DNA from: Desulfosoma sp. | GTDB lineage: Bacteria; Desulfobacterota; Syntrophobacteria; Syntrophobacterales; DSM-9756 | NCBI GenBank assembly: GCA_037481835.1 | Contig: JBBFKW010000007.1 | Location: 1-64,000, forward strand | Length of the DNA stretch: 64,000 bases | Direction of reading: 5' to 3' | Shown: positions 3,556-64,000 of the stretch, piece by piece | Position numbering within the stretch: the stretch's first letter is position 1 | How the letters are laid out: every line of letters begins with the position of its first letter | Made by a program: the position numbers and the translations under genes | Notes under the pieces: model-generated | What the model saw: the letters and a program-made list of their open reading frames with translations, nothing else | The model's database searches: none | What the model was told of the DNA's origin: nothing

Positions 3556-4739
3556 GAAGCGGGCTCCTCTTGGGCTTTTTCTGCATAGATCCAAGACGGC
3601 GTCTCGAGGCAGGCGGCGCCGAGCATCCCGAAGGCCTTCAGGTGTTCGCGGGTGCTTGCAGAAAGCGTGTAACGGGCCACCGCCTGCTTCAAGAAAGACG
3701 GATCGGGGCGAGCGTCCAGGGTTTCCAGCATGGCCTGAGCCAGAGCCTGAGGGTCGCCGCACGGCACAAGGCGCCCGTAACGGCCGTCTTGAAGGATTTC
3801 CCGGGGACCGCTGGGGCAATCCGTCGCCACCACGGCGGTGCCCATGGCCAGGGCTTCCGTCAGCACGTTGGGGGATCCTTCCCACAGAGAAGACAGCACG
3901 AAGAGGTCGGCATGGGCGAGATACCCGTACGGGTTTTCCACAAAGCCGGGAAAATCCGTCCAGGGGTCGACGCCCAGGGATCGCGCCAGATCCAGGAGCT
4001 TTTCCTTGAGATGGCCTTTGCCGAGAATGAGCAGCCGAGCCGGTCTTTGGCGAATCATGATCGCGAAGGCTCGAAGGAGGGTCGGAAAATCCTTGGCTTT
4101 GCGAAGACCTCCCATCCCCAATACCACGGGCACGTCCCGGGGCGGCTCGTAGAAGGGATGGGCCGGAAGTGGGGGTGTGTGCGCCAGCATTTCCGGCGTC
4201 ACCACGGGGTTGGGCACCACGTGGATCCGCTCGCGAGGAACACCCAGGAGCCGTTCCACGTCGCGAGCAACGCCCTGGGAGACGGCGATCACGCCGTGGG
4301 CTTTTGGGAAGAGGCGGCGCAGCCGCCTCATGCGCCACCAGGTTTTGAGAATGGAGCGGTTTTCGTTTCGCGCCGAAAGGGTCGTCCCAACTCTCAAAAA
4401 GACCCGGGTTGGGGTGCGCGCGGAACGAACCGCGGCCAAGGCTTCGGCGTCGCTTCTTTTTCCCGAAAGGAGAACGTCCGGCTGGCATTCGGCCACGTAG
4501 CGGGTGAGGCGGCCGATGCGTTCCGCCTCGGAGTTTTCGTCGATAACACAGAGCTTTACGGAAGGCGGTAGGCTTCCCAGATAGGGGGCTTGGGCCGTCC
4601 GCGTCAAAAAGTCCACCGTACAGCCGTGCTCGCTCAGCCCCCGGGCGAGATGGACCAGCATCCGGTCGTTGCCGCCGTCGCCTGCGGAAAACGTGATCAA
4701 TCCCACACGAGGTGCCTGCACTGGGTGATTCCTGGTCAT
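3552..4739 (-). CDS. Glycosyltransferase family 4
   Basis: GGNDR, KAKDFPTLL, EGSPNVLTEALAMG, TDCPSGPREIL. Confidence 0.92.
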   Translation of the reverse strand: MTRNHPVQAPRVGLITFSAGDGGNDRMLVHLARGLSEHGCTVDFLTRTAQAPYLGSLPPSVKLCVIDENSEAERIGRLTRYVAECQPDVLLSGKRSDAEALAAVRSARTPTRVFLRVGTTLSARNENRSILKTWWRMRRLRRLFPKAHGVIAVSQGVARDVERLLGVPRERIHVVPNPVVTPEMLAHTPPLPAHPFYEPPRDVPVVLGMGGLRKAKDFPTLLRAFAIMIRQRPARLLILGKGHLKEKLLDLARSLGVDPWTDFPGFVENPYGYLAHADLFVLSSLWEGSPNVLTEALAMGTAVVATDCPSGPREILQDGRYGRLVPCGDPQALAQAMLETLDARPDPSFLKQAVARYTLSASTREHLKAFGMLGAACLETPSWIYAEKAQEEPAS

Positions 4740-6061
4740 GATTGGGGATCCTTGCCGGAGCGGGGCGTGCCCCGAAACAAAGGCCCCGAGGTGATAAGGC
4801 CGGCAAGAAAATTCCAGAAAAAACGCCAGTCGGGATGGAGGGCGCGAAAATCAAAAAGAGCCCAGAGAAAGAGATAGATCAGAAAAGCCAGGGAAAACAG
4901 CCACAGGGAAGTGCTCACGGTCCCTTCTTTCCACGCTCGCTGAACCCCGAGAAAAAGTGCCCCGTAGAGCCAAAGCCACAGGGCGGCTCCCACCGCCCCG
5001 TAATGAAAAAGGATCTCCAGCTGGGTGCTGTGCAGGTGATCCCACCACTGCAGTTCCCCTTTCCAGTTGGGCGATTTCAAGGTCTCGCGGCCGCTTTCCT
5101 GAATGAAGCGTTTGGATGAGGCCGGTCCGGCCCCCCACACGGGGCGCTCGAGGATGCCTTCGAAAGCGAATTTGTAGAGGTGGGCTCGATACCCGGTGGA
5201 GTCTTGAGCCGGCCGGTTGAAGTCGAAGGATTTCAGGTGGAGGAACGTGTCCTTTTCTTCGTTCCATCGCTTTTCCAGGAGGGGCCGGTTTAAGACCGTA
5301 ATCCCGATGAGGAGCGCCCAAAAGACGATGAGTCCGCGTTTGAGACTCACGGGAAGGGGCCGGGACCGATCGGTGGTCCGTGTCATGAAGACGATGACGG
5401 TGATGATGAGGGCCGTCGCTCCAAACCCCAGAAAAACACCTCGCGATTGGGTAAAGAACAGGGCCTGACCCAGGAGCGTGAGAAGCACGGCCCAAAGAGC
5501 GATCCAGAAAGGTTTGAAGCGGCGAGCCTGAAAGAATTCCGGTGTGAAACACACCAAAGCCCACAGGAACGTTCCGGCATACAATCCGAAGGCGACGATG
5601 CGCAGATGAAATCCCGTGCGCATCCCCTGCCACGCGCTTTCCAGCGTGTGGAGATCCACAGCCCGGGTCATGCCCAAAAGAAGGCCGGCAAGGGCCACCC
5701 CGAGAAGCCGCCGGCACCGGGTTTCGTCGCCTCCGCACCACCAAGCGACGACGGGGAAAAGGAGCAGGCGGGCCCATCCCCATAGCCCGTCCATGTGATA
5801 GGCGGCCCATTCCGGCCGCTGCAGCGATGCGGCGGCGGCCCTCAGAACCATGAAGCCGACAAGTGCGGCCCACGGCCAAAGAAGCCATCGCGCCGGGGGG
5901 AAACCCGTTTTTGGCACTTTCAAAAGGAACAGCCCGACCAGGATCCACAGGGCCGCCGTGGCCGTCGTGGTGCTCAGCAAGGCCGTAAAAGCGAACGTAT
6001 AGAGCGCCGCCAAACCGATTCTATCCAGATGCGGCAAATGGTGCGATGACAGTGGGTTCAT
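4736..6061 (-). CDS. O-antigen ligase (WaaL/Wzy_C) family membrane protein
   Basis: Many hydrophobic segments, TQSRG, RPVWGAG, HLHSTQLEILFHYGAVG. Start at 6061 chosen for the ATGA overlap; 6097 is an alternative. Confidence 0.85.
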   Translation of the reverse strand: MNPLSSHHLPHLDRIGLAALYTFAFTALLSTTTATAALWILVGLFLLKVPKTGFPPARWLLWPWAALVGFMVLRAAAASLQRPEWAAYHMDGLWGWARLLLFPVVAWWCGGDETRCRRLLGVALAGLLLGMTRAVDLHTLESAWQGMRTGFHLRIVAFGLYAGTFLWALVCFTPEFFQARRFKPFWIALWAVLLTLLGQALFFTQSRGVFLGFGATALIITVIVFMTRTTDRSRPLPVSLKRGLIVFWALLIGITVLNRPLLEKRWNEEKDTFLHLKSFDFNRPAQDSTGYRAHLYKFAFEGILERPVWGAGPASSKRFIQESGRETLKSPNWKGELQWWDHLHSTQLEILFHYGAVGAALWLWLYGALFLGVQRAWKEGTVSTSLWLFSLAFLIYLFLWALFDFRALHPDWRFFWNFLAGLITSGPLFRGTPRSGKDPQS

Positions 6062-6774
6062 TTTTTTCCAGATCCAGGACAGAGCTTCTTCCACCATCGC
6101 CCGGGAATTTTGAAGAGTCGGTGCACCCTGTTGGGCAAGGCACTATACCCGATACCCTCTTTGGGATGCCATAGCCTTTCGTCAAGAGCCGGCGACTGGG
6201 GAAAGCAACCCTGCCAGCGTCCGGGGTGCTTGGATCCCACGGCGAAGACGTAGACGGAACTCTTCCGATGACGGTTCCAGTTCATATACAGCACATGGAG
6301 GCCGTTCTCCTCGTAGAGGCGCTTTACGGCCATCGGGGAAAACCTCCAAAAGTCTCCATAGTCCGAGTGATACGGTTGCAAGAAAGGAACACAAACCATA
6401 ACGATATCCCGGGACAGGAGGGAAAGATTTTCGAACGCTTTGAAGACGTTGTAGACGTGTTCCAGCGTGGTGTGATTGAAAACCACATCGAATCGGCCGA
6501 TGAGTTCGGCGGGAAGTTCTTGTTCCAGGTCGAGAAAAATTTCGTTCGGGTAATTTTGAAAGCCGCGGGCTTCAGATCTCCAGTTCGTCAACCAATAGCT
6601 TGCGGCGTTGACGAAGTAGTCGCGATAACGGCGTCCTTCCTTGTCCTCGTCTTTCCAGGCGCTCACATTGACGATATCTCCATGAAAAAGATGGGCGATC
6701 TTTTCCAGTTCCCTGTTGGACCAGGCACGCGGCAATCGGAAGATGCGATCGACACCGAAACGTTTTTCAGCCAT
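6058..6774 (-). CDS. SAM-dependent methyltransferase-like protein
   Basis: FDVVFNHTTLEHV and VPFLQPYH..DFWRFS resemble polysaccharide-cluster methyltransferases. The glycine-rich motif I is not evident. Confidence 0.6.
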   Translation of the reverse strand: MAEKRFGVDRIFRLPRAWSNRELEKIAHLFHGDIVNVSAWKDEDKEGRRYRDYFVNAASYWLTNWRSEARGFQNYPNEIFLDLEQELPAELIGRFDVVFNHTTLEHVYNVFKAFENLSLLSRDIVMVCVPFLQPYHSDYGDFWRFSPMAVKRLYEENGLHVLYMNWNRHRKSSVYVFAVGSKHPGRWQGCFPQSPALDERLWHPKEGIGYSALPNRVHRLFKIPGRWWKKLCPGSGKK

Positions 6775-7891
6775 GGGCCTCGTCCGACTTTTCGGCCAAG
6801 AGCGCATCTCGGAGGGTGCGGGCCCGGTTTTCCCAGCTGTACCGGGCGGCGTCCCTTCGGGCGCAGGCCGCCAAATCCCGGGCGACCCCGGGATGCTCCT
6901 GAAGAAACCGGACCGCTTCCAGCCATGCTTCGTTGTCCTCGGGGTCCAGGCACAGCGCATTTCGGCCGTGCCGGGCGACTTCACGGATCGGTTCCAAGTC
7001 GCTCACCAGGATGGGCCGCCCCGCGGCCATGGCTTCGAAGAGCTTCATGGGGCTGATGGATCCCGCGTGAGGCAGATTCCTCTGGTAGGGCATCACGACA
7101 ATATCCGCCTGTTCCAGGCACCGGGGGATCTCGTGGTGCGGAACGAAAGGGACGAGCCGGATGCGGTCCGTTGCCGGGCTGTCTTCCAGGGATCCCACCA
7201 CCGTGACGCGAAAGGCATCCTGCTCGGCCAATTTTTCCAAGATACTCAGCCCTCGATGGCGACTGATCCGACCGACGTACATGATGTGAGGGCGTTCGAG
7301 CCCGGATGGGTCCCACGGAGCGATGTTTTGGAAAAGCCCGAGATCGGCGCCGCAGGGGCAGACATGAACGCCTTCCGGCGGTACCCCGAGATCCAGGAAA
7401 CCCCGGGCTGCAGCGTGGCTGATGGGGAAAAAGCGGCGGATCAAACCCTTTGTAAACCCCTCCGTGAGCCGTTGGAGGAAGCCCTGGCGCCGCAGGGCGT
7501 CCATGTCGTGCACTTCAAGGCTGTGCGGGATGTCGTGTTTCATGAGCGCCAGGCTGAGGACGGCGGAACGGGTGTACACCACGGGGGCCTGCCGTAGCCT
7601 TTTTTTGTGCCTCCAGAAAAACGGGGCGAACGCCATGGTTTTCCAAAAGGAACGCAAGCCGCTTTCCGTTCGGATGCACAATGGCACGCCGACCCCCAGG
7701 TCGTTCAGGATTTCCTCTATCCTTCGTCTTCCTTTCCAGGGCGGCACATAGAGTTCCACCGAGACGCCGATCCGTGCCAAACCTTCCGCGGTTTTTATCG
7801 TCTGGATGACGTTGGCTCGAGGCCGATGCAGACGAGCTCGGGACACATAGATGAACTGCGCGGTGTTTTCCAAGGGCTCGGATGGCGCCAT
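6767..7891 (-). CDS. Glycosyltransferase family 4
   Basis: ANVIQT, YVGRI, SPMKLFEAMAAGRPILVSDL. Confidence 0.9.
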   Translation of the reverse strand: MAPSEPLENTAQFIYVSRARLHRPRANVIQTIKTAEGLARIGVSVELYVPPWKGRRRIEEILNDLGVGVPLCIRTESGLRSFWKTMAFAPFFWRHKKRLRQAPVVYTRSAVLSLALMKHDIPHSLEVHDMDALRRQGFLQRLTEGFTKGLIRRFFPISHAAARGFLDLGVPPEGVHVCPCGADLGLFQNIAPWDPSGLERPHIMYVGRISRHRGLSILEKLAEQDAFRVTVVGSLEDSPATDRIRLVPFVPHHEIPRCLEQADIVVMPYQRNLPHAGSISPMKLFEAMAAGRPILVSDLEPIREVARHGRNALCLDPEDNEAWLEAVRFLQEHPGVARDLAACARRDAARYSWENRARTLRDALLAEKSDEAHG

Positions 7892-7893
7892 GT

Positions 7894-8979
7894 TCAGGCC
7901 TTTCCGAGGATTTCTTCATAGATGCGGAGATTTCCCCGCACCATGGCCTGAGGTGAAAAGCTGGCGCGCACAAGATCCCGGCCGTGATTCCCCATGCGAT
8001 GGGCCTCTTCAGGGTGATCCAGCATCCATAGCACGGCGGATTGGAGTTCTTCGGGACTTTGGGGATCCACCAGGAGGCCGTTCAGCCCGTGCCGGACGAC
8101 TTCGGGAATCCCTCCGGCCCTAGAGGCCACTATGGGGACTCCGGCCGCCGCCGCTTCCAAGAGGCACACCCCCAATCCTTCCAAACTTGCCGGATGGACG
8201 AGAAGATCCAGGCACGGGAAGATCCTGTCCATATCCGATCGAAACCCCGCAAAATGGATCTTATGGGATACCTTTCCATCTTCGGCGATCTGCTGCAGGC
8301 GTTCTCGAAGGGGACCCCGCCCGAAGAAGCACAAGTGCACATCAGGATGCCGGGCGCAAATGGCCGGGGCGACGGCGATGAGCCGTTCATGGCCTTTTCG
8401 GGCGATGAGCTGGGCAACCGTTCCGATGATGCGGCTGCCTTCGGGCAGGCCGAGATCCCGAAGAAGTTCCTTCTTAGCGTAGGGCGATCTAAAACGATCC
8501 TGTGCAACACAGCTGGGAACGCACCGGATCTTTTCTTCACGGATCCCTTCCGATTTCAGGACTTGGACGATGGCCGACGAAATGGCGATGACACGCCGAT
8601 AGAAGCCGTATTTCAGACGGGCGGCCAGAGGGTGTTCGGGGTTGTCCACCCGGCGGGTCACAACGGCGGGGGTTTGCGTCTCGGCGGCGACCAGTCCGCC
8701 CCACCAGTCGGCGCCGCGCCGGCTGTGCACATGGAGAACGTGAGGCTTCCAGCGGAGCACGGCGTGCCGCAATCCCATGGGCAACCTGGGGTCCAATTCC
8801 CCGGAAAAGGACAGCAGGCTGAGGGCTGCGTACGGGCCGGCTTGTCGGGCGATGGCGCTGTCTTCGGGGGCGCACAGGATGTTTTCCACGCCCAGGGCGG
8901 ACAGTCCTTTAATGAGCAGCAGCACTTGGTACGCTCCGCCGTAGAGATGCCTGCCCGTTTCCACGTGAAGAACCCGCAT
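7894..8979 (-). CDS. Glycosyltransferase family 4
   Basis: YGGAYQ, RKGH, EGLGVCLLEAAAAGVP. Confidence 0.92.
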   Translation of the reverse strand: MRVLHVETGRHLYGGAYQVLLLIKGLSALGVENILCAPEDSAIARQAGPYAALSLLSFSGELDPRLPMGLRHAVLRWKPHVLHVHSRRGADWWGGLVAAETQTPAVVTRRVDNPEHPLAARLKYGFYRRVIAISSAIVQVLKSEGIREEKIRCVPSCVAQDRFRSPYAKKELLRDLGLPEGSRIIGTVAQLIARKGHERLIAVAPAICARHPDVHLCFFGRGPLRERLQQIAEDGKVSHKIHFAGFRSDMDRIFPCLDLLVHPASLEGLGVCLLEAAAAGVPIVASRAGGIPEVVRHGLNGLLVDPQSPEELQSAVLWMLDHPEEAHRMGNHGRDLVRASFSPQAMVRGNLRIYEEILGKA

Positions 8980-8983
8980 GGCC

Positions 8984-10087
8984 TCAGCCCTCCGCCGATG
9001 CGGCCAAAACCCGCCGAGCGGCGCTCATGACCTCCTCTTCGTGGAGGGCCGCCATGCAGGGAAAGGAGCCTTTGCAGGTGGGCCGACGCCGGCAGGGGGA
9101 GCAGGGCAAAGGCGTGTACAGGACGAGAGCGCGATCCGAGCGGGTGTGGAGGTAAGGGCATGTGGCTCCGAAGAGGGCGACCGTCGGGCGTTTCAGGGCC
9201 ACGGCCATATGGGTCAGTCCCGTGTCTACGCCGATCACGAGCCGAGCGCCTTGGAGGACGGCGGCGCTTTCCAGAAGGGACGTTTGTCCGGTGAGATTGA
9301 CCATCCACGGCGACAGAGAGCAGAGACGTTCTGCGGTTTCCGCATCGCCGCCTCCCCCCAAAAGAACGACGGGCAAGTTGTGTTCCTCGGCGATCCTTTG
9401 GGCAAGCTTCGCCCATCGTTCGCCGATCCAGTGCTTTTGCGGCCTTGTCGTAAACGGGGCGAAGACGGCGTACGGCCGTGGACCGATCATTCCGATCAAG
9501 AGCCCTTCGGCCCGCTCGGCGGCCTCACGGGGGACGTTCACCCCCATGGGGAAGCCGTCTTTGCAAACCCCCAGGTACCGAACCATGTGTTCGTATTCAG
9601 TCCCGATGGTCCGTGTTCGGGGGCCTTTGGAGATGACTTCGGTCATGAGAAAGCGGCCCGGTTCTTTGGAGGCGAAGCCGACCCGACGCCGCGCGCCGCT
9701 CAGGGCGGCGAGGAGCCGGCTCCTCAGGAGTCCCTGGACGTCTAGAGCCACGTCGATGTGCTGACTCTTGAGCCTTTGACGGAAGGCCGAAACTTCCCGG
9801 GCCAACGCCGTGACGCGCCGCGCCTGCAGGAGTTCCTTCCAGCGGGATTTAGGCCACACCAGCACATCATCCACCCCGGGTTGGGCTCGAAGAAAATCTT
9901 CCACATAAGGTTCGGCAAGCCAGAGCACGGAAGCCTCGGGAAGGGCTTTTTTGATCACGGCCGCCATGGGAAGCGCCATGACCACATCGCCGATGGCGCT
10001 GGGCCGAATGATCAAAAAGCGCATGGCTTGAGTCCCGGTGCGGCGCTGGGAAGATGGTCCGGAGGCATGCCGTGAGGGTTCCGTCAT
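8984..10087 (-). CDS. Glycosyltransferase family 9 (LPS heptosyltransferase)
   Basis: RPSAIGDVV, DVQGLLRS, DTGLTHMAVAL, LFGAT, CSPC..C. Start is 10087 (ATGA overlap) or 10024. Confidence 0.92.
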   Translation of the reverse strand: MTEPSRHASGPSSQRRTGTQAMRFLIIRPSAIGDVVMALPMAAVIKKALPEASVLWLAEPYVEDFLRAQPGVDDVLVWPKSRWKELLQARRVTALAREVSAFRQRLKSQHIDVALDVQGLLRSRLLAALSGARRRVGFASKEPGRFLMTEVISKGPRTRTIGTEYEHMVRYLGVCKDGFPMGVNVPREAAERAEGLLIGMIGPRPYAVFAPFTTRPQKHWIGERWAKLAQRIAEEHNLPVVLLGGGGDAETAERLCSLSPWMVNLTGQTSLLESAAVLQGARLVIGVDTGLTHMAVALKRPTVALFGATCPYLHTRSDRALVLYTPLPCSPCRRRPTCKGSFPCMAALHEEEVMSAARRVLAASAEG

Positions 10088-11166
10088 GGGGTGCATGAGC
10101 CGACCAACTTTTTGTAAAGGTCCAGATATTGCCCGATCACTCGCTCTTGCGAATAGAGTTCGGTCACCATCTTGCGGCCCGCTTCCCCAAGTTCCCGTCG
10201 AAGGCCCTCATCTTCCAAAATGTTTTGGATCGCCCGGGCCATGGCGACGGGGTCCGACACGGGCGTGAGGATGCCGTTTTCGCCTGGGGTCACGAGTTCC
10301 ACCGCCCCCAGCGTTTCTGTGGACACAACCGGCACGCCGTGGCTCCAGGCTTCCAGGATGACGTTCCCGAGGGGTTCATGCCGCGACGGACAGACGAAAA
10401 CGTCGCTCAGGGCATAAAAAGGGGCCGGCTCGTCCTGCCAGCCCACAAAGCGCACATGGGGGCCGAGCCTCAAGGAATCGCTCTGCCTTTGGACATGGTC
10501 CCGATGGGGGCCGTCTCCCGCCACGACGAGGATCACGGGGCGCCCCTTGATGGATCGCGGGAGCCGGGCAAAAGCCGACAGCAGGTCTGTGAACCCCTTT
10601 TTGGGAACGAAGCGGCCCAGGGAAAAAACCACCCAGGCCTCTTGGGGGATCCGCCATGTGGAACGGAGAGTCATGAGGGTTTCTTCGGGGACGGGTGGGG
10701 GCGCGTCCACAAAATTGGGGATGTAAAAGACGCGCCTCGGGGGCAGACCGTTTCGGATCAGGTAGTCGCAGATGCCTTTGGTGTTTCCGATCCAGGCATG
10801 GGCGTGGGTGTAATAGCCTCGAATCTTGTAGTAGCCGCCCAAACGGGCGATGTGCACCGCTCCTGAATCCCGGGGAGTCCGGGTCAGGCGCGTGGCTCGG
10901 CCCATGTACGTTTGCACCACCGGGCATCCAATCCGGCGGATCAAAGCGCGAATCTTGAAAACGGACAACACATCCCAGCCGTTTCTCATGGGGACGGGAT
11001 GGACGGCGATACCCGGGTGAAGAAACCGAGTCACGGGGCTTTTCGGGCGCACAGCGACCCCGATGCCCTCCTGCCTTTCGGCCAAACCGTTCACCAGCCG
11101 GATGAAAAAACGTTCCGCGCCGCCCAGCCCCGGGCTTCCCAAGATATGGAGCGAGGGGCAGGTCAT
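10084..11166 (-). CDS. Glycosyltransferase family 4
   Basis: GGAERF, GRFVPKKGF, EPLGNVILEAW. Confidence 0.92.
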   Translation of the reverse strand: MTCPSLHILGSPGLGGAERFFIRLVNGLAERQEGIGVAVRPKSPVTRFLHPGIAVHPVPMRNGWDVLSVFKIRALIRRIGCPVVQTYMGRATRLTRTPRDSGAVHIARLGGYYKIRGYYTHAHAWIGNTKGICDYLIRNGLPPRRVFYIPNFVDAPPPVPEETLMTLRSTWRIPQEAWVVFSLGRFVPKKGFTDLLSAFARLPRSIKGRPVILVVAGDGPHRDHVQRQSDSLRLGPHVRFVGWQDEPAPFYALSDVFVCPSRHEPLGNVILEAWSHGVPVVSTETLGAVELVTPGENGILTPVSDPVAMARAIQNILEDEGLRRELGEAGRKMVTELYSQERVIGQYLDLYKKLVGSCTP

Positions 11167-61323: not shown

Positions 61324-62531
61324 CGAGCATTCCTGCGGCCTCCCCAACGTGTCGATTCGGATGTGATGTCTTTCTCGAGGATCCTCCCAGCTGGCTTTTC
61401 CAAAAGCGCATCGGCGTCTTGGCCAATCAGGCGTCGGTGTGTGCCGACTTTACCCACGTCATCGACGCCCTGGCGGCGCGTGGGGCGCGGCTGAGCGCCG
61501 TTTTTTCGCCGCAGCACGGCTTTTACGCGGAAAAACAAGCCAACATGATCGAATCCGATCATGGCCGCCACAAGGACTATGATGTGCCCATCTTCAGCCT
61601 TTACGGCGAGACGCGGCAACCCACGGAGGCCATGCTGGACCTCATCGACGTCCTCCTCGTGGACCTCCAAGACGTTGGCACCCGTGTCTATACCTACGGG
61701 ACCACGGTCGGGTTGTGTGTGGAAGCTCTGTCGAAACGTTCCATCCCAATGGTGGTTTTGGATCGGCCCAATCCCATCGGAGGCTGTCGAGTGGAAGGCA
61801 ATGTGGTTCGGGAAGGGTACCGATCCTTTGTGGGCCGTTATGCCCTGCCCATGCGCCACGGGCTGACCATCGGGGAACTGGCCTCGTGGGTGGCCCGGCA
61901 GGAAGGCTGTGAAGGGCTTGTGAGCGTCGTCCGAGTTCAAGGCTGGAGGCGAAATAATCTGTGGCCCGCCACCAAGCGGCCGTGGATTTTCCCGTCGCCC
62001 AATATGCCGACGTGGGAAACGGCGCTCCTTTATCCCGGGATGGTCTTGCTGGAAGGGACCAACCTGAGTGAAGGGCGGGGAACGACCTTGCCGTTCCAGT
62101 TAGTGGGCGCACCGTACCTGGACCCCGATGCCGTGCGGGACCGCATGGATGCCTCGGCTCTCCAAGGCCTTGTGCTCCGAACCGTGGAATTCGAACCCAC
62201 CTTCGACAAATGGGCGGGAAGGCGATGCCGCGGCTTTCAACTCCACATCACGGACCCCGAAATTTTCCGGCCGTATCGGTTCGGTTTGGCCTTTCTTCAG
62301 GCGGTCCTTCGGGTGCATCGGAAATCGTTTCGATGGCTCCCGCCCCCCTACGAATACGAAGAGCGGCACCTGCCCATCGATATTCTCACAGGAGACCCCG
62401 TGATCCGCACAAAATTGGAGGACGGTCAAGCGGTGACGGATTTGGAGCGGGGGTGGGAAGAAGATTTGGAAGCTTATGAGGCCGGGCGCCGTGGGATCCT
62501 TCTTTACGACGGTGAGCCCGAGGACCCGTAA
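61320..62531 (+). CDS. Exo-beta-N-acetylmuramidase NamZ (DUF1343) family protein
   Basis: FSPQHG, DLQDVGTRVYTY, DRPNP, RHGLTIGE, PSPNMP, SEGRGT. Confidence 0.88.
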   Translation: MTSIPAASPTCRFGCDVFLEDPPSWLFQKRIGVLANQASVCADFTHVIDALAARGARLSAVFSPQHGFYAEKQANMIESDHGRHKDYDVPIFSLYGETRQPTEAMLDLIDVLLVDLQDVGTRVYTYGTTVGLCVEALSKRSIPMVVLDRPNPIGGCRVEGNVVREGYRSFVGRYALPMRHGLTIGELASWVARQEGCEGLVSVVRVQGWRRNNLWPATKRPWIFPSPNMPTWETALLYPGMVLLEGTNLSEGRGTTLPFQLVGAPYLDPDAVRDRMDASALQGLVLRTVEFEPTFDKWAGRRCRGFQLHITDPEIFRPYRFGLAFLQAVLRVHRKSFRWLPPPYEYEERHLPIDILTGDPVIRTKLEDGQAVTDLERGWEEDLEAYEAGRRGILLYDGEPEDP

Positions 62532-62543
62532 CGGCGCAAGGAC

Positions 62544-63998
62544 TTAACCTTCCAGAGTGAGCAAGACCGCCTCGGCCACGTGCCTCATGGACTTGCGGGT
62601 GTCCATGCTCTTTTTCTGCAACCAGCGGTAGGCTTCCTCGCCGGTGAGGTTGAGCCTGGAGATGAGGACATCTTTGGCCTTTTCGATGATCTTCCTCTTT
62701 TCCAGTTCTTCTTGAATGATCGTGGTCTTCACCATGAGTTCGGTGTTTTCGATGGCCACAGCGGCTTGATTGGCCACGGCGGTCAGCACGTTCATCTCCA
62801 GCTCGGTGAACCGATGGGGCCGGGACGTGTAGCAGTTGATGACGCCGATGACGCGGTCCTTGACGCGCATGGGGATACTGAGCATGGAGACGAGGCCGAG
62901 GCGCTTGGCCAGTTCTTTTTCCTTGTAATAGGGGTCCTCCAGGACGTTGAGGGAAATGTGCGGTTTGTTTTCAACGACGACCTTGCCGACGACGCCTTCC
63001 CCGACCTTGAGCACCCGATCTTTGACGTAATCGGGATTGATGGCTTGCGTCGCCCGCAGGCGCAGCACGCGTTCTTGCTCATCGAGGAGCCATAAGGAAC
63101 ACACGCTGGAATTCATCACTTCCGCGGTGACCATCACGATGAGCCGCAAAATATCTTCCAGGTATTGGTCCGAAGTGATGGCCTTGCTGATCACGGTGAG
63201 AGCTTCAACACTCTTGTCCGCGGGGCTGGGTTCCATCGATCTTTGCGCCGCCTGAGCGAATTCGTCCAGATACCCTTCAGCGAACCGTAGCGGCGGGCGG
63301 CGCTTGTGGAGCGTTCGGGACCGGAGCTCTTCAATGCGTTTTCGAACCGCTTGGGGCACCGCCGCCTGGCGGCCGCTCAAAAAGCTATCCAGGTGCTTGT
63401 AGGTGAAGCCCATTTCCCCTTCGTCGGTCTGACCGGCCCACAACCCCGCCGAAGGGGGTTTCGTGATGATGGAATGGGGAAGTTTCAGCGCTCGGGCCAG
63501 CTTCTGAACGTCTTTTTTCAGCAGGTGAATAATGGGTTGGATGTCCGCCGCGCCGTCTCCATGCTTCGTGAAGTACCCGATTTCCCATTCGCTGCGATTG
63601 CTGGTGCCCATGACCAAGAAGCCGAGTTCGGCGGCCTTGTGGTAGAGGACGGCCATGCGCACTCTGGCCTTGAGGTTTCCCAGGAGACGGGGATCGTTGC
63701 AGGAGAGGGTTTCCGCGAGCCGATCCACGACAGGCCCCAGATCGATTTCTTCGCAGGAAATGCCCACGTGCCGACAGACCAATCGCGCATCGGCCAGATC
63801 GTCCGGAGCATTGTGACATGGCAGGATGAGCCCGAGGACGTGCTCCCCCAGGGCCTTTTTCGCCAAAGCGGCACAGACGGCGGAGTCGATGCCTCCGCTG
63901 ATGCCGACGACCACGCCCCGGGCTCCGGCGCCCCGGACGCTCTCCGCAATCCATTGCACCAGACGCGCGATGTCTTCGGAGTGCTTTCGGCCGGCCAT
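62544..63998 (-). CDS. nadE: NH3-dependent NAD+ synthetase fused to GAF and ANTAR domains
   Basis: SGGIDS, NLKARVRM, GTSNRSE..GYFTKHGDG, PSAGLW.GQTDE; then GAF (SIPMRVKDRVIGVI..AIEN); then ANTAR (RKIIEKAK..EEAY..LQKKSMD). The start is at the window edge and may lie further upstream. Confidence 0.88.
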   Translation of the reverse strand: MAGRKHSEDIARLVQWIAESVRGAGARGVVVGISGGIDSAVCAALAKKALGEHVLGLILPCHNAPDDLADARLVCRHVGISCEEIDLGPVVDRLAETLSCNDPRLLGNLKARVRMAVLYHKAAELGFLVMGTSNRSEWEIGYFTKHGDGAADIQPIIHLLKKDVQKLARALKLPHSIITKPPSAGLWAGQTDEGEMGFTYKHLDSFLSGRQAAVPQAVRKRIEELRSRTLHKRRPPLRFAEGYLDEFAQAAQRSMEPSPADKSVEALTVISKAITSDQYLEDILRLIVMVTAEVMNSSVCSLWLLDEQERVLRLRATQAINPDYVKDRVLKVGEGVVGKVVVENKPHISLNVLEDPYYKEKELAKRLGLVSMLSIPMRVKDRVIGVINCYTSRPHRFTELEMNVLTAVANQAAVAIENTELMVKTTIIQEELEKRKIIEKAKDVLISRLNLTGEEAYRWLQKKSMDTRKSMRHVAEAVLLTLEG

Positions 63999-64000
63999 GC

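Follow-up and report, generated by a model that had tools for sequence, protein, structure and literature searches.

Why should an NAD synthetase run in frame into a domain that binds RNA? This question is raised by a gene at the end of a 64,000-nt stretch of the Desulfosoma sp. genome (assembly GCA_037481835.1, contig JBBFKW010000007.1), which joins an NH3-dependent NAD synthetase (NadE) to a GAF sensor and an ANTAR domain. The whole stretch is called the window here; it comprises positions 1-64000 of contig C7 of the window's genome, G000, and the contig continues past the window end. We consider it fairly probable (roughly 0.7) that the product is one polypeptide which acts as a dimeric one-component RNA-binding antiterminator on two leaders, those of gltX and of a glutamate synthase operon on contig C6, and that its input domain is derived from an enzyme.

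Integrity and distribution of the fused gene

The original prediction described an apparently intact NadE that continues without a stop through a linker into GAF and ANTAR domains. This description holds, as the ORF listing and the translation give a single open reading frame (ORF) of 484 codons for a protein of 484 aa (about 54 kDa) on the minus strand, a strand that the original prediction had left unstated, and all three domains are recognised by Pfam (Table 1). The ATG sits 2 nt inside the window end and a GGAG is found 9 nt ahead of it. An alternative in-frame TTG located 57 nt upstream of the ATG would give a protein of 503 aa, but the ATG start is favoured because the close homologues are also 484 aa long with 100% query coverage.

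Contigs from independent public runs bridge the junction between the NadE and GAF-ANTAR halves, so that the proposed look at reads over the linker came out in favour of the fusion. Both the X2 contig (4215 nt, 5 substitutions) and the X4 contig (9889 nt, 15 substitutions) cover positions 62400-64000 with no gaps, a 612-nt X3/X5 contig crosses the linker (62985-63596), and no indels were listed over the gene in these contigs. The fusion is real, and is neither an assembly error nor a recent accident. A frameshift, a misassembly or an internal start that yields NadE and GAF-ANTAR as two proteins is very improbable. The linker does contain an internal methionine (residue 254, 63237-63239) at which a second protein might begin; this residue is unconserved in the family alignment and a conserved internal start is therefore unlikely. 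The lack of indels in the independent contigs also speaks against such an artefact, as does a frame that stays open across 15 genomes and about 80 protein clusters.

The NAD_synthase+GAF+ANTAR architecture, which had been suggested as a search target, does occur elsewhere. The full-length, stop-free fusion was found in 15 of 41 related genomes, namely 9/9 of family f1 (the window's own genome included), 6/26 of f3 and 0/6 of f2. In a large protein collection about 80 clusters carry all three domains with identities from 94% down to 47%; among those with a name are Desulfosoma caldarium, Desulfacinum hydrothermale and Syntrophobacteraceae. Full-length fusions also form 19 of the 80 loci kept from a collection of species-representative genomes, where they belong to Desulfosoma, Desulfacinum infernum and D. 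hydrothermale, a Desulforhabdus metagenome-assembled genome (MAG), and MAGs of Syntrophobacteraceae and Syntrophobacterales. Public records name these proteins merely 'NAD(+) synthase', a label that would conceal a regulator.

The gene order was observed to be the same in all 11 genomes inspected: lepB (signal peptidase) lies directly upstream on the same strand, namZ is convergent downstream, and pilMNOPQ is divergent from lepB. A maximum-likelihood tree was computed from 80 fused proteins (the truncated P0081 was omitted) with 11 free-standing GAF-ANTAR proteins as outgroup. In this tree the fused proteins are monophyletic with an SH-aLRT support of 99, in a quick method that uses no mixture model and with long outgroup branches. 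The fusion is apparently old and anciently conserved, and the idea that two neighbouring genes had fused recently is rejected in view of its monophyly, its age and the identical neighbours in 11/11 genomes.

Domain architecture

The N-terminal part of the protein scores 246 bits with the NCBIfam model TIGR00552 (nadE) against a cut-off of 63.65, and 248.2 with the archaeal-type equivalog NF010587, slightly below the cut-off of 255. No Pfam match to a CN_hydrolase glutaminase domain (PF00795) was found in the fusion protein. The NadE domain aligns across 229 residues with the solved chains 2e18 (E 3e-56) and 3fiu, and signature stretches including the SGGxDS P-loop are common to all three. The linker that follows is variable up to about residue 258, and many invariant columns are found from S263 on.

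The models PF13185, PF01590 and PF13492 are all over cut-off for the GAF region. Its nearest NCBIfam matches are the GAF parts of PtsP (8.7e-14) and NifA (7.2e-13), and these GAF regions sense 2-oxoglutarate and glutamine. The ANTAR domain at C7:62562-62714 is the sole ANTAR match in a search of the whole G000 genome. Exactly one such match was found in each fusion genome (15/15) and none in the other 26. According to the available part of Ramesh et al. 2012 (PMC3369931), ANTAR domains have five exposed conserved residues, of which three are alanine, one is alanine or serine and one is aromatic. Our alignment of 34 fused proteins shows A441, A477, S464, S470 and W459 to be invariant and A456 and Y457 to be at least 90% conserved, in the fusion's own numbering, which is not mapped to the five positions of that paper.

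Table 1. Coordinates in the window of the fused gene and of its parts (residue numbers are those of the 484-aa protein)
Feature	Position	Strand	Basis or remark
Complete NadE-GAF-ANTAR coding sequence	62544..63998	-	Stop codon 62544-62546; ORF listing, full-length homologues, indel-free independent contigs
NH3-dependent NAD synthetase (NadE) domain, residues 10-236	63291..63971	-	PF02540 4.6e-68, 229 bits; also placed by genome search
ATP-pyrophosphatase P-loop SGGIDS, residues 34-39	63882..63899	-	Intact in P0001-P0017 and P0019; changed in the remaining 63 of the 81 fused clusters
Linker and conserved helix into GAF, residues 237-279, including Met254	63162..63290	-	Alignments of fused proteins
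GAF sensor domain, residues 280-417	62748..63161	-	PF13185 (GAF_2) 8.8e-23; PF01590 1.5e-20
ANTAR RNA-binding domain, residues 429-479	62562..62714	-	PF03861 8.4e-19; 67.6 bits against a cut-off of 27.3; 71.5 bits in genome search

Leaders of the glutamate synthase genes

A scan of the genome for ANTAR twin hairpins had been proposed, and only its stricter form was productive. Generic scans for paired hexaloop hairpins with A as the first and G as the fourth loop nucleotide (A1/G4) gave no excess over a reversed control. They returned 190 against 219 sites over the whole genome when stems had to be 4 bp or longer, 1228 against 1250 when 3 bp sufficed, and 196 against 177 within intergenic DNA. 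A regular expression that required two AC-A..G..-GT hairpins, each with a stem of 4 bp or more, on the other hand, gave two sites in G000, one on contig C6 and one on contig C12, and none in the reversed genome. The suspected link to nitrogen metabolism is supported here, as the only ANTAR-type leaders found in G000 precede glutamate-synthase-type genes.

The C6 leader (C6:55331-55430) stands before a split glutamate synthase operon which begins at C6:55475 and encodes an amidotransferase-like protein (376 aa), a Fer4 and Glu_synthase protein (544 aa) and a GXGXG and GltD-like protein (779 aa). A promoter-like TTGACA is followed by two A1/G4 hexaloop hairpins and then by an intrinsic terminator, and the leader precedes the same operon in 9/9 f1 genomes. 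Guanine was observed at the fourth position in 18/18 of these loops and adenine at the first position in 17/18. When the nine leaders were aligned, 96.1% of the cells were found to be paired and 11 of the 26 pairs varied on both sides; none of 500 shuffles reached this and slid controls lay far lower. Model R1, which describes this leader, gave one strong match in each f1 genome and none in the 32 genomes of f2 and f3. In the fusion-bearing f3 genomes R1 gave nothing convincing, the weak matches there resembling coding sequence. Neither the C6 leader nor any part of the window gave an Rfam match that attained the gathering score of its family.

The C12 leader (C12:105942-105994, with the hairpin pair at C12:105947-105989) belongs to gltX, a Glu_synthase-like gene encoding 521 aa (C12:106071-107633) that is divergent from gdhA. 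In the unconstrained fold of this leader the terminator takes up the loop and the 3' arm of the second hairpin. The leader is predicted to have the classical ANTAR design, in which the second hairpin and the terminator are mutually exclusive.

A second model, R2, combines 25 foreign leaders, taken from free-standing GAF-ANTAR loci of other orders, with the gltX leader of G000. In this family 94.3% of the cells are paired and none of 500 shuffles attained its covariation score. R2 matched 14/15 fusion genomes and 0/26 others at E<=0.05, the E-values of both R1 and R2 being rough. In 13/15 fusion genomes the match lies directly upstream of a gltX homologue, which was seen in none of the fusion-less genomes. 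The motif before gltX was also recognised by eye in G006 and G032, which brings the leader to all 15 fusion genomes. The gltX gene itself is present in 14/15 fusion genomes and in 19/26 fusion-less ones, and the motif was found before gltX in 0/10 upstream regions read in the latter. With the leader in all 15 fusion genomes and no R2 match in the other 26, though 19 of those have gltX, the leader therefore seems to travel with the regulator and not merely with the gene.

Some variation was noticed among the leaders. Those of the glutamate synthase (GOGAT) operon in G000-G003, the four genomes of the window's genus (L036-L039), carry a third A1/G4 hexaloop hairpin, GGAC-AACGTC-GTCC, after the terminator and about 60 nt past the second hairpin. 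The gltX leaders of G014 (L180), G018 (L183), G033 (L181) and G032 (L193) carry a second twin-hairpin unit after the first terminator, which suggests tandem attenuators. In G002 (C4:43325-44880, L186) the gltX leader is intact, and the gltX that follows has an in-frame TAG at codon 5, matches only piecewise and is followed by gdh sequence; this gltX is probably broken or rearranged.

Free-standing GAF-ANTAR relatives

Sixty-one free-standing GAF-ANTAR loci were found in Desulfobacterales, Desulfatiglandales and related MAGs, with 56-70% identity to residues 255-483 of the fusion. Twin AC-A..G..-GT hairpins and a T-run, with the terminator overlapping the second hairpin, were observed just downstream of the regulator in 35/61 of them. 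The neighbours were scanned in 29 of the loci (48 flanking ORFs of 263 candidate ORFs), where a Glu_synthase-like neighbour of about 530 aa was found in 22, a glutamate dehydrogenase (GDH) in 5 and an upstream lepB in 2. The GAF-ANTAR module of the fusion is probably orthologous to the free-standing GAF-ANTAR regulators of other Desulfobacterota. The free-standing proteins (loci L115-L175) share with the fusion the twin-hairpin RNA, the gltX-type or GDH neighbours and, in two loci, the upstream lepB. They differ from it in having no NadE and in the position of the leader, which directly follows the regulator gene there but is on another contig in the fusion genome.

The place of NadE is filled differently among the relatives. 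P0104, P0107 and P0122-P0139 (about 390-430 aa, 50-55% identical to the C-terminal half) are GAF-GAF-ANTAR proteins with a second GAF where NadE stands in the fusion, and other free-standing relatives have about 50 N-terminal residues ahead of GAF-ANTAR. In several free-standing loci the order is regulator, leader, gdh. P0108 (611 aa; one JGI cluster on an 8-kb contig) has a GAF-ANTAR part (27-226) that runs into a glutamate dehydrogenase (237-609), and may be a second enzyme fusion, or else a deletion or a gene-call artefact.

Decay of the NadE half

The two halves of the fusion were compared across 81 aligned fused clusters, with identities taken relative to the window's protein. The C-terminal GAF-ANTAR half was found to be 98% to 75% identical whereas the NadE half ranges from 93% to 24%, and in an alignment of 34 sequences about 100 columns of the GAF-ANTAR half are invariant, as against a single one (P155) of the NadE half. 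Four NadE signatures were followed: the SGGxDS P-loop, GTSNRSE...GYFTK.GDG, the PSAGLW.GQTDE loop and HKR. The functions assigned to single residues within these stretches are putative. All four signatures are intact in 17/81 clusters (P0001-P0017), the window's included, P0019 retains the P-loop alone, and the P-loop is lost in the other 63, so that catalytic motifs are lost in 64/81 fused clusters. The Pfam NAD_synthase score falls along with them, from 229 bits in the window's protein to 114 (P0037), 55 (P0065) and 45 (P0078).

The motif-intact rows are located near the base of the tree and at three separate places in it, and at least 2-3 changes of state are therefore required. The simplest reading would be one old fusion of a working NadE that was followed by repeated decay. 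Catalysis appears to be dispensable across the family, and most of the fused relatives are apparently pseudo-enzymes. One of the genomes with a decayed NadE domain, G004, has both leader types nonetheless.

Conservation within the N-terminal half also changes with the state of the motifs. In the 17 intact clusters the motif positions are the best conserved of this half (0.934, against 0.809 for the predicted dimer interface and 0.753 for the rest), whereas the 63 decayed clusters conserve them least (0.385), behind the predicted interface (0.544) and the rest (0.459). The interface mean of the decayed clusters was reached by 80 of 5000 random sets of positions. The NadE domain of the window's clade, with every NadE signature in place, may still produce NAD from ammonia.

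Predicted dimer and proposed mechanism

A two-copy complex prediction based on our own alignment gave an ipSAE of 0.81 against 0.00 for the best control. The mark used for ipSAE was reached by 20/30 proteins solved as same-chain pairs and by 1/23 solved as single chains, counts that are rough where an alignment of one's own is used, as it was here. The prediction runs agreed in at least 83% of contacts with a pLDDT of at least 80. NadE dimers have been solved, and part of this pass may be a recall of them. The predicted interface spans the chain, with contributions from the NadE helices 85-124 and 145-158, from residues 258-275 of the linker and from residues 400-435 that lead into ANTAR.

An ANTAR dimer is described in the available part of PMC3369931 as binding two hexaloops in nascent RNA and so blocking the formation of the terminator. 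By the mechanism that we propose, the GAF-ANTAR dimer would recognise the paired hexaloop hairpins in the nascent leaders (A at position 1, G at position 4, closing AC...GT), and its binding would let RNA polymerase read through the terminators of the gltX and C6 leaders. Glutamate synthesis would thereby follow a metabolic signal, which the GAF domain would supply. The NadE domain would fill a slot that is empty or occupied by GAF in the relatives and would add a second dimer contact; it probably also senses a second ligand, which for the window's clade may be ATP, nicotinic acid adenine dinucleotide (NaAD), NH3 or NAD. The direction of control is a guess, read-through when nitrogen is scarce being the physiologically plausible one. 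The protein would now have a candidate regulon, which consists of the two glutamate synthase leaders.

Weighing of the explanations

Several observations weigh against the antiterminator proposal as set out here. The fusion gene is not adjacent to its proposed targets. The leaders and the protein co-occur among relatives, which are not independent, and a small number of gains or losses may account for this pattern. G006 was missed by R2 and the R2 match of G032 looks spurious. In most f1 genomes the second hairpin of the C6 leader abuts the terminator without overlapping it, and classical mutual exclusion therefore fails to explain read-through there. Further targets may also exist in the genome beyond the two leaders, and could have been missed because the generic scans gave no excess over their controls.

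What the NadE domain contributes can be read in other ways. It is possible, at clearly less than even odds, that this domain only dimerises the protein and makes NAD independently where it is intact, with all of the regulation left to GAF. The decayed clusters, where the interface is better kept than the rest and the motifs least of all, would fit such a passive role, as would the NadE helices in the interface of the predicted homodimer; free-standing relatives, furthermore, cope with some 50 N-terminal residues, or with a second GAF, in this place. However, the strong motif conservation in the window's clade would then require a separate reason, that is, a retained enzyme function, and all 81 clusters retain a full-length domain of about 240 aa, even though dimerisation in the relatives is already provided by GAF and the coiled coil. 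A more active role, which we regard as doubtful, is that of a trigger enzyme: an active NH3-dependent NadE whose state of catalysis or of ligand occupancy (ATP, NaAD, adenylated intermediate, NH3 or NAD) sets the RNA binding of ANTAR, so that ammonia or NAD would gate the glutamate synthase genes. The signatures are all intact and align with the solved enzymes, and the motif positions remain the best conserved of the N-terminal half in the 17 intact clusters though identity of that half drops to about 51%. The proposed targets are also ammonium-assimilation genes, and a separate glutamine-dependent NadE would free the fused copy to specialise. This NadE (CN_hydrolase and NAD_synthase, 607 aa) is encoded on contig C6 of G000, and a NadE match in a frame of 545-640 aa was found in all 41 genomes; NAD synthesis therefore need not rely on the fused copy. 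Against gating by catalysis as a general principle of the family, however, stand the loss of the motifs in most clusters, in at least 2-3 independent events, while the GAF-ANTAR half and the gltX leader were kept, and a decayed NadE beside both leader types in G004. The GAF sensor could also carry the entire signal.

For Desulfosoma and Desulfacinum the same idea can be put more sharply, although it is likewise a doubtful one. An active ammonia-dependent NadE would there serve as the sensor of the antiterminator, its occupancy by ATP or NaAD and NH3 would decide on glutamate synthase transcription, and the sister lineages would represent stages of decay to a pseudo-enzyme that acts as sensor or scaffold. 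If true, an ANTAR regulator gated by an enzyme would be seen here for the first time, and the family would form a natural series from trigger enzyme to pseudo-enzyme.

Relation to known systems

Receiver, NIT, PAS and GAF domains are known as inputs of ANTAR proteins. The closest parallel for the RNA side is the EutV dual-hexaloop antiterminator of Enterococcus faecalis, as far as the available parts of Ramesh et al. 2012 (PMC3369931) and of Walshe et al. 2022 (PMC8934654), which also covers this system, describe it. EutV has the same ANTAR output, two A1/G4 hexaloop hairpins and an expected dimer, and in PMC3369931 the second hairpin competes with an intrinsic terminator as it does in the gltX leader. 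Unlike EutV, which has a phospho-receiver input, the fusion has GAF and a whole NadE with no partner kinase, and the second hairpin of its C6 leader does not overlap the terminator. The available part of Ramesh et al. also reports a nitrogen-metabolism theme, with matches before glutamate synthase genes included, and the available portions of its supplements hold no entry for Syntrophobacter, Desulfacinum or nadE. NasR (NIT-ANTAR) and AmiR/AmiC, which are one-component or partner-controlled ANTAR regulators, in the accessible parts of PMC3369931 and PMC7496416, likewise join a ligand sensor to ANTAR and act on nitrogen operons through leader terminators. Their sensors are NIT, or a pseudo-receiver with AmiC, and no enzyme domain is involved.

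On the enzyme side, the fusion resembles the NadE proteins 2e18 and 3fiu over the full domain, with the P-loop and signatures shared and a dimer interface predicted through the same helices. It differs from them in its 245-residue C-terminal regulator, in falling under the NF010587 cut-off and in having relatives that are mostly putative pseudo-enzymes. Trigger enzymes, in the sense of Commichau and Stuelke, are reportedly metabolic enzymes that also control gene expression. The fusion is like them in combining an enzyme fold with a gene-regulatory output in one protein and in having proposed targets in a connected pathway. It is unlike them in that most members of its family are without the catalytic motifs, and the coupling of catalysis to regulation is putative here.

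Full-text literature searches gave no relevant paper linking ANTAR with NadE or with NAD synthetase or synthase. The NadE fusion is unnamed among the 11 commonest of 149 Pfam ANTAR architectures in the available part of a 2025 review, and no GAF or ANTAR fusion is mentioned in the available part of De Ingeniis et al. 2012 on the NadE family (PMC3376133). Relative to the searchable literature, an enzyme domain as the input of an ANTAR protein is new; its mode, antitermination, is like that of EutV, NasR and AmiR. Within the family some cultured thermophilic sulfate reducers have kept the enzyme domain intact, and in their relatives the same domain has decayed. The family would thus lend itself to a study of how an enzyme fold comes to serve as a sensor, and of a possible sensing of free ammonia by way of NadE chemistry.

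Other nitrogen genes and minor features of the genome

The genes glnA, glnB and amtB, which the original prediction had named as possible neighbours, lie on other contigs behind sigma-54-like promoters. Twin hairpins were absent from the leaders of amtB, glnK, glnA, glnB and the glutamine-dependent nadE, and sigma-54-like -24/-12 elements were found instead. The upstream regions of glnA and amtB contain an ACAA-N-TTGT-type palindrome in addition to these elements. The amtB-glnK pair is located on C14, and nifH was not found in G000. In the lepB-nadE* spacer (nadE* being the fusion gene) and in the lepB/pilM divergent region, no ANTAR-like element was seen and no terminator-like site was reported on the strand of the fusion gene.

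A one-strand nitrogen cluster at C6:116447-124494 (L031:6447-14494) contains genes for a GAF-sigma54 activator, the glutamine-dependent NadE, glnB, glnD, a 144-aa ORF and glnA. Upstream of the activator gene, at C6:124480-124900 (L031:14480-14900, minus strand), at least six tandem repeats of about 45 nt were noticed, with a G-rich hairpin and a GCAGCTGC-like core. On C20 (about 4200-10800) a unit containing CTCAAAGCGGGGCCTGCCTTCGGAC recurs at spacer-like intervals in a CRISPR-array-like arrangement, which was a source of false twin-hairpin matches. Finally, a third and weak NAD_synthase-like match was observed at C10:47765-48460, in a 349-aa frame, with 44 bits (65.5 together with its neighbour in frame).

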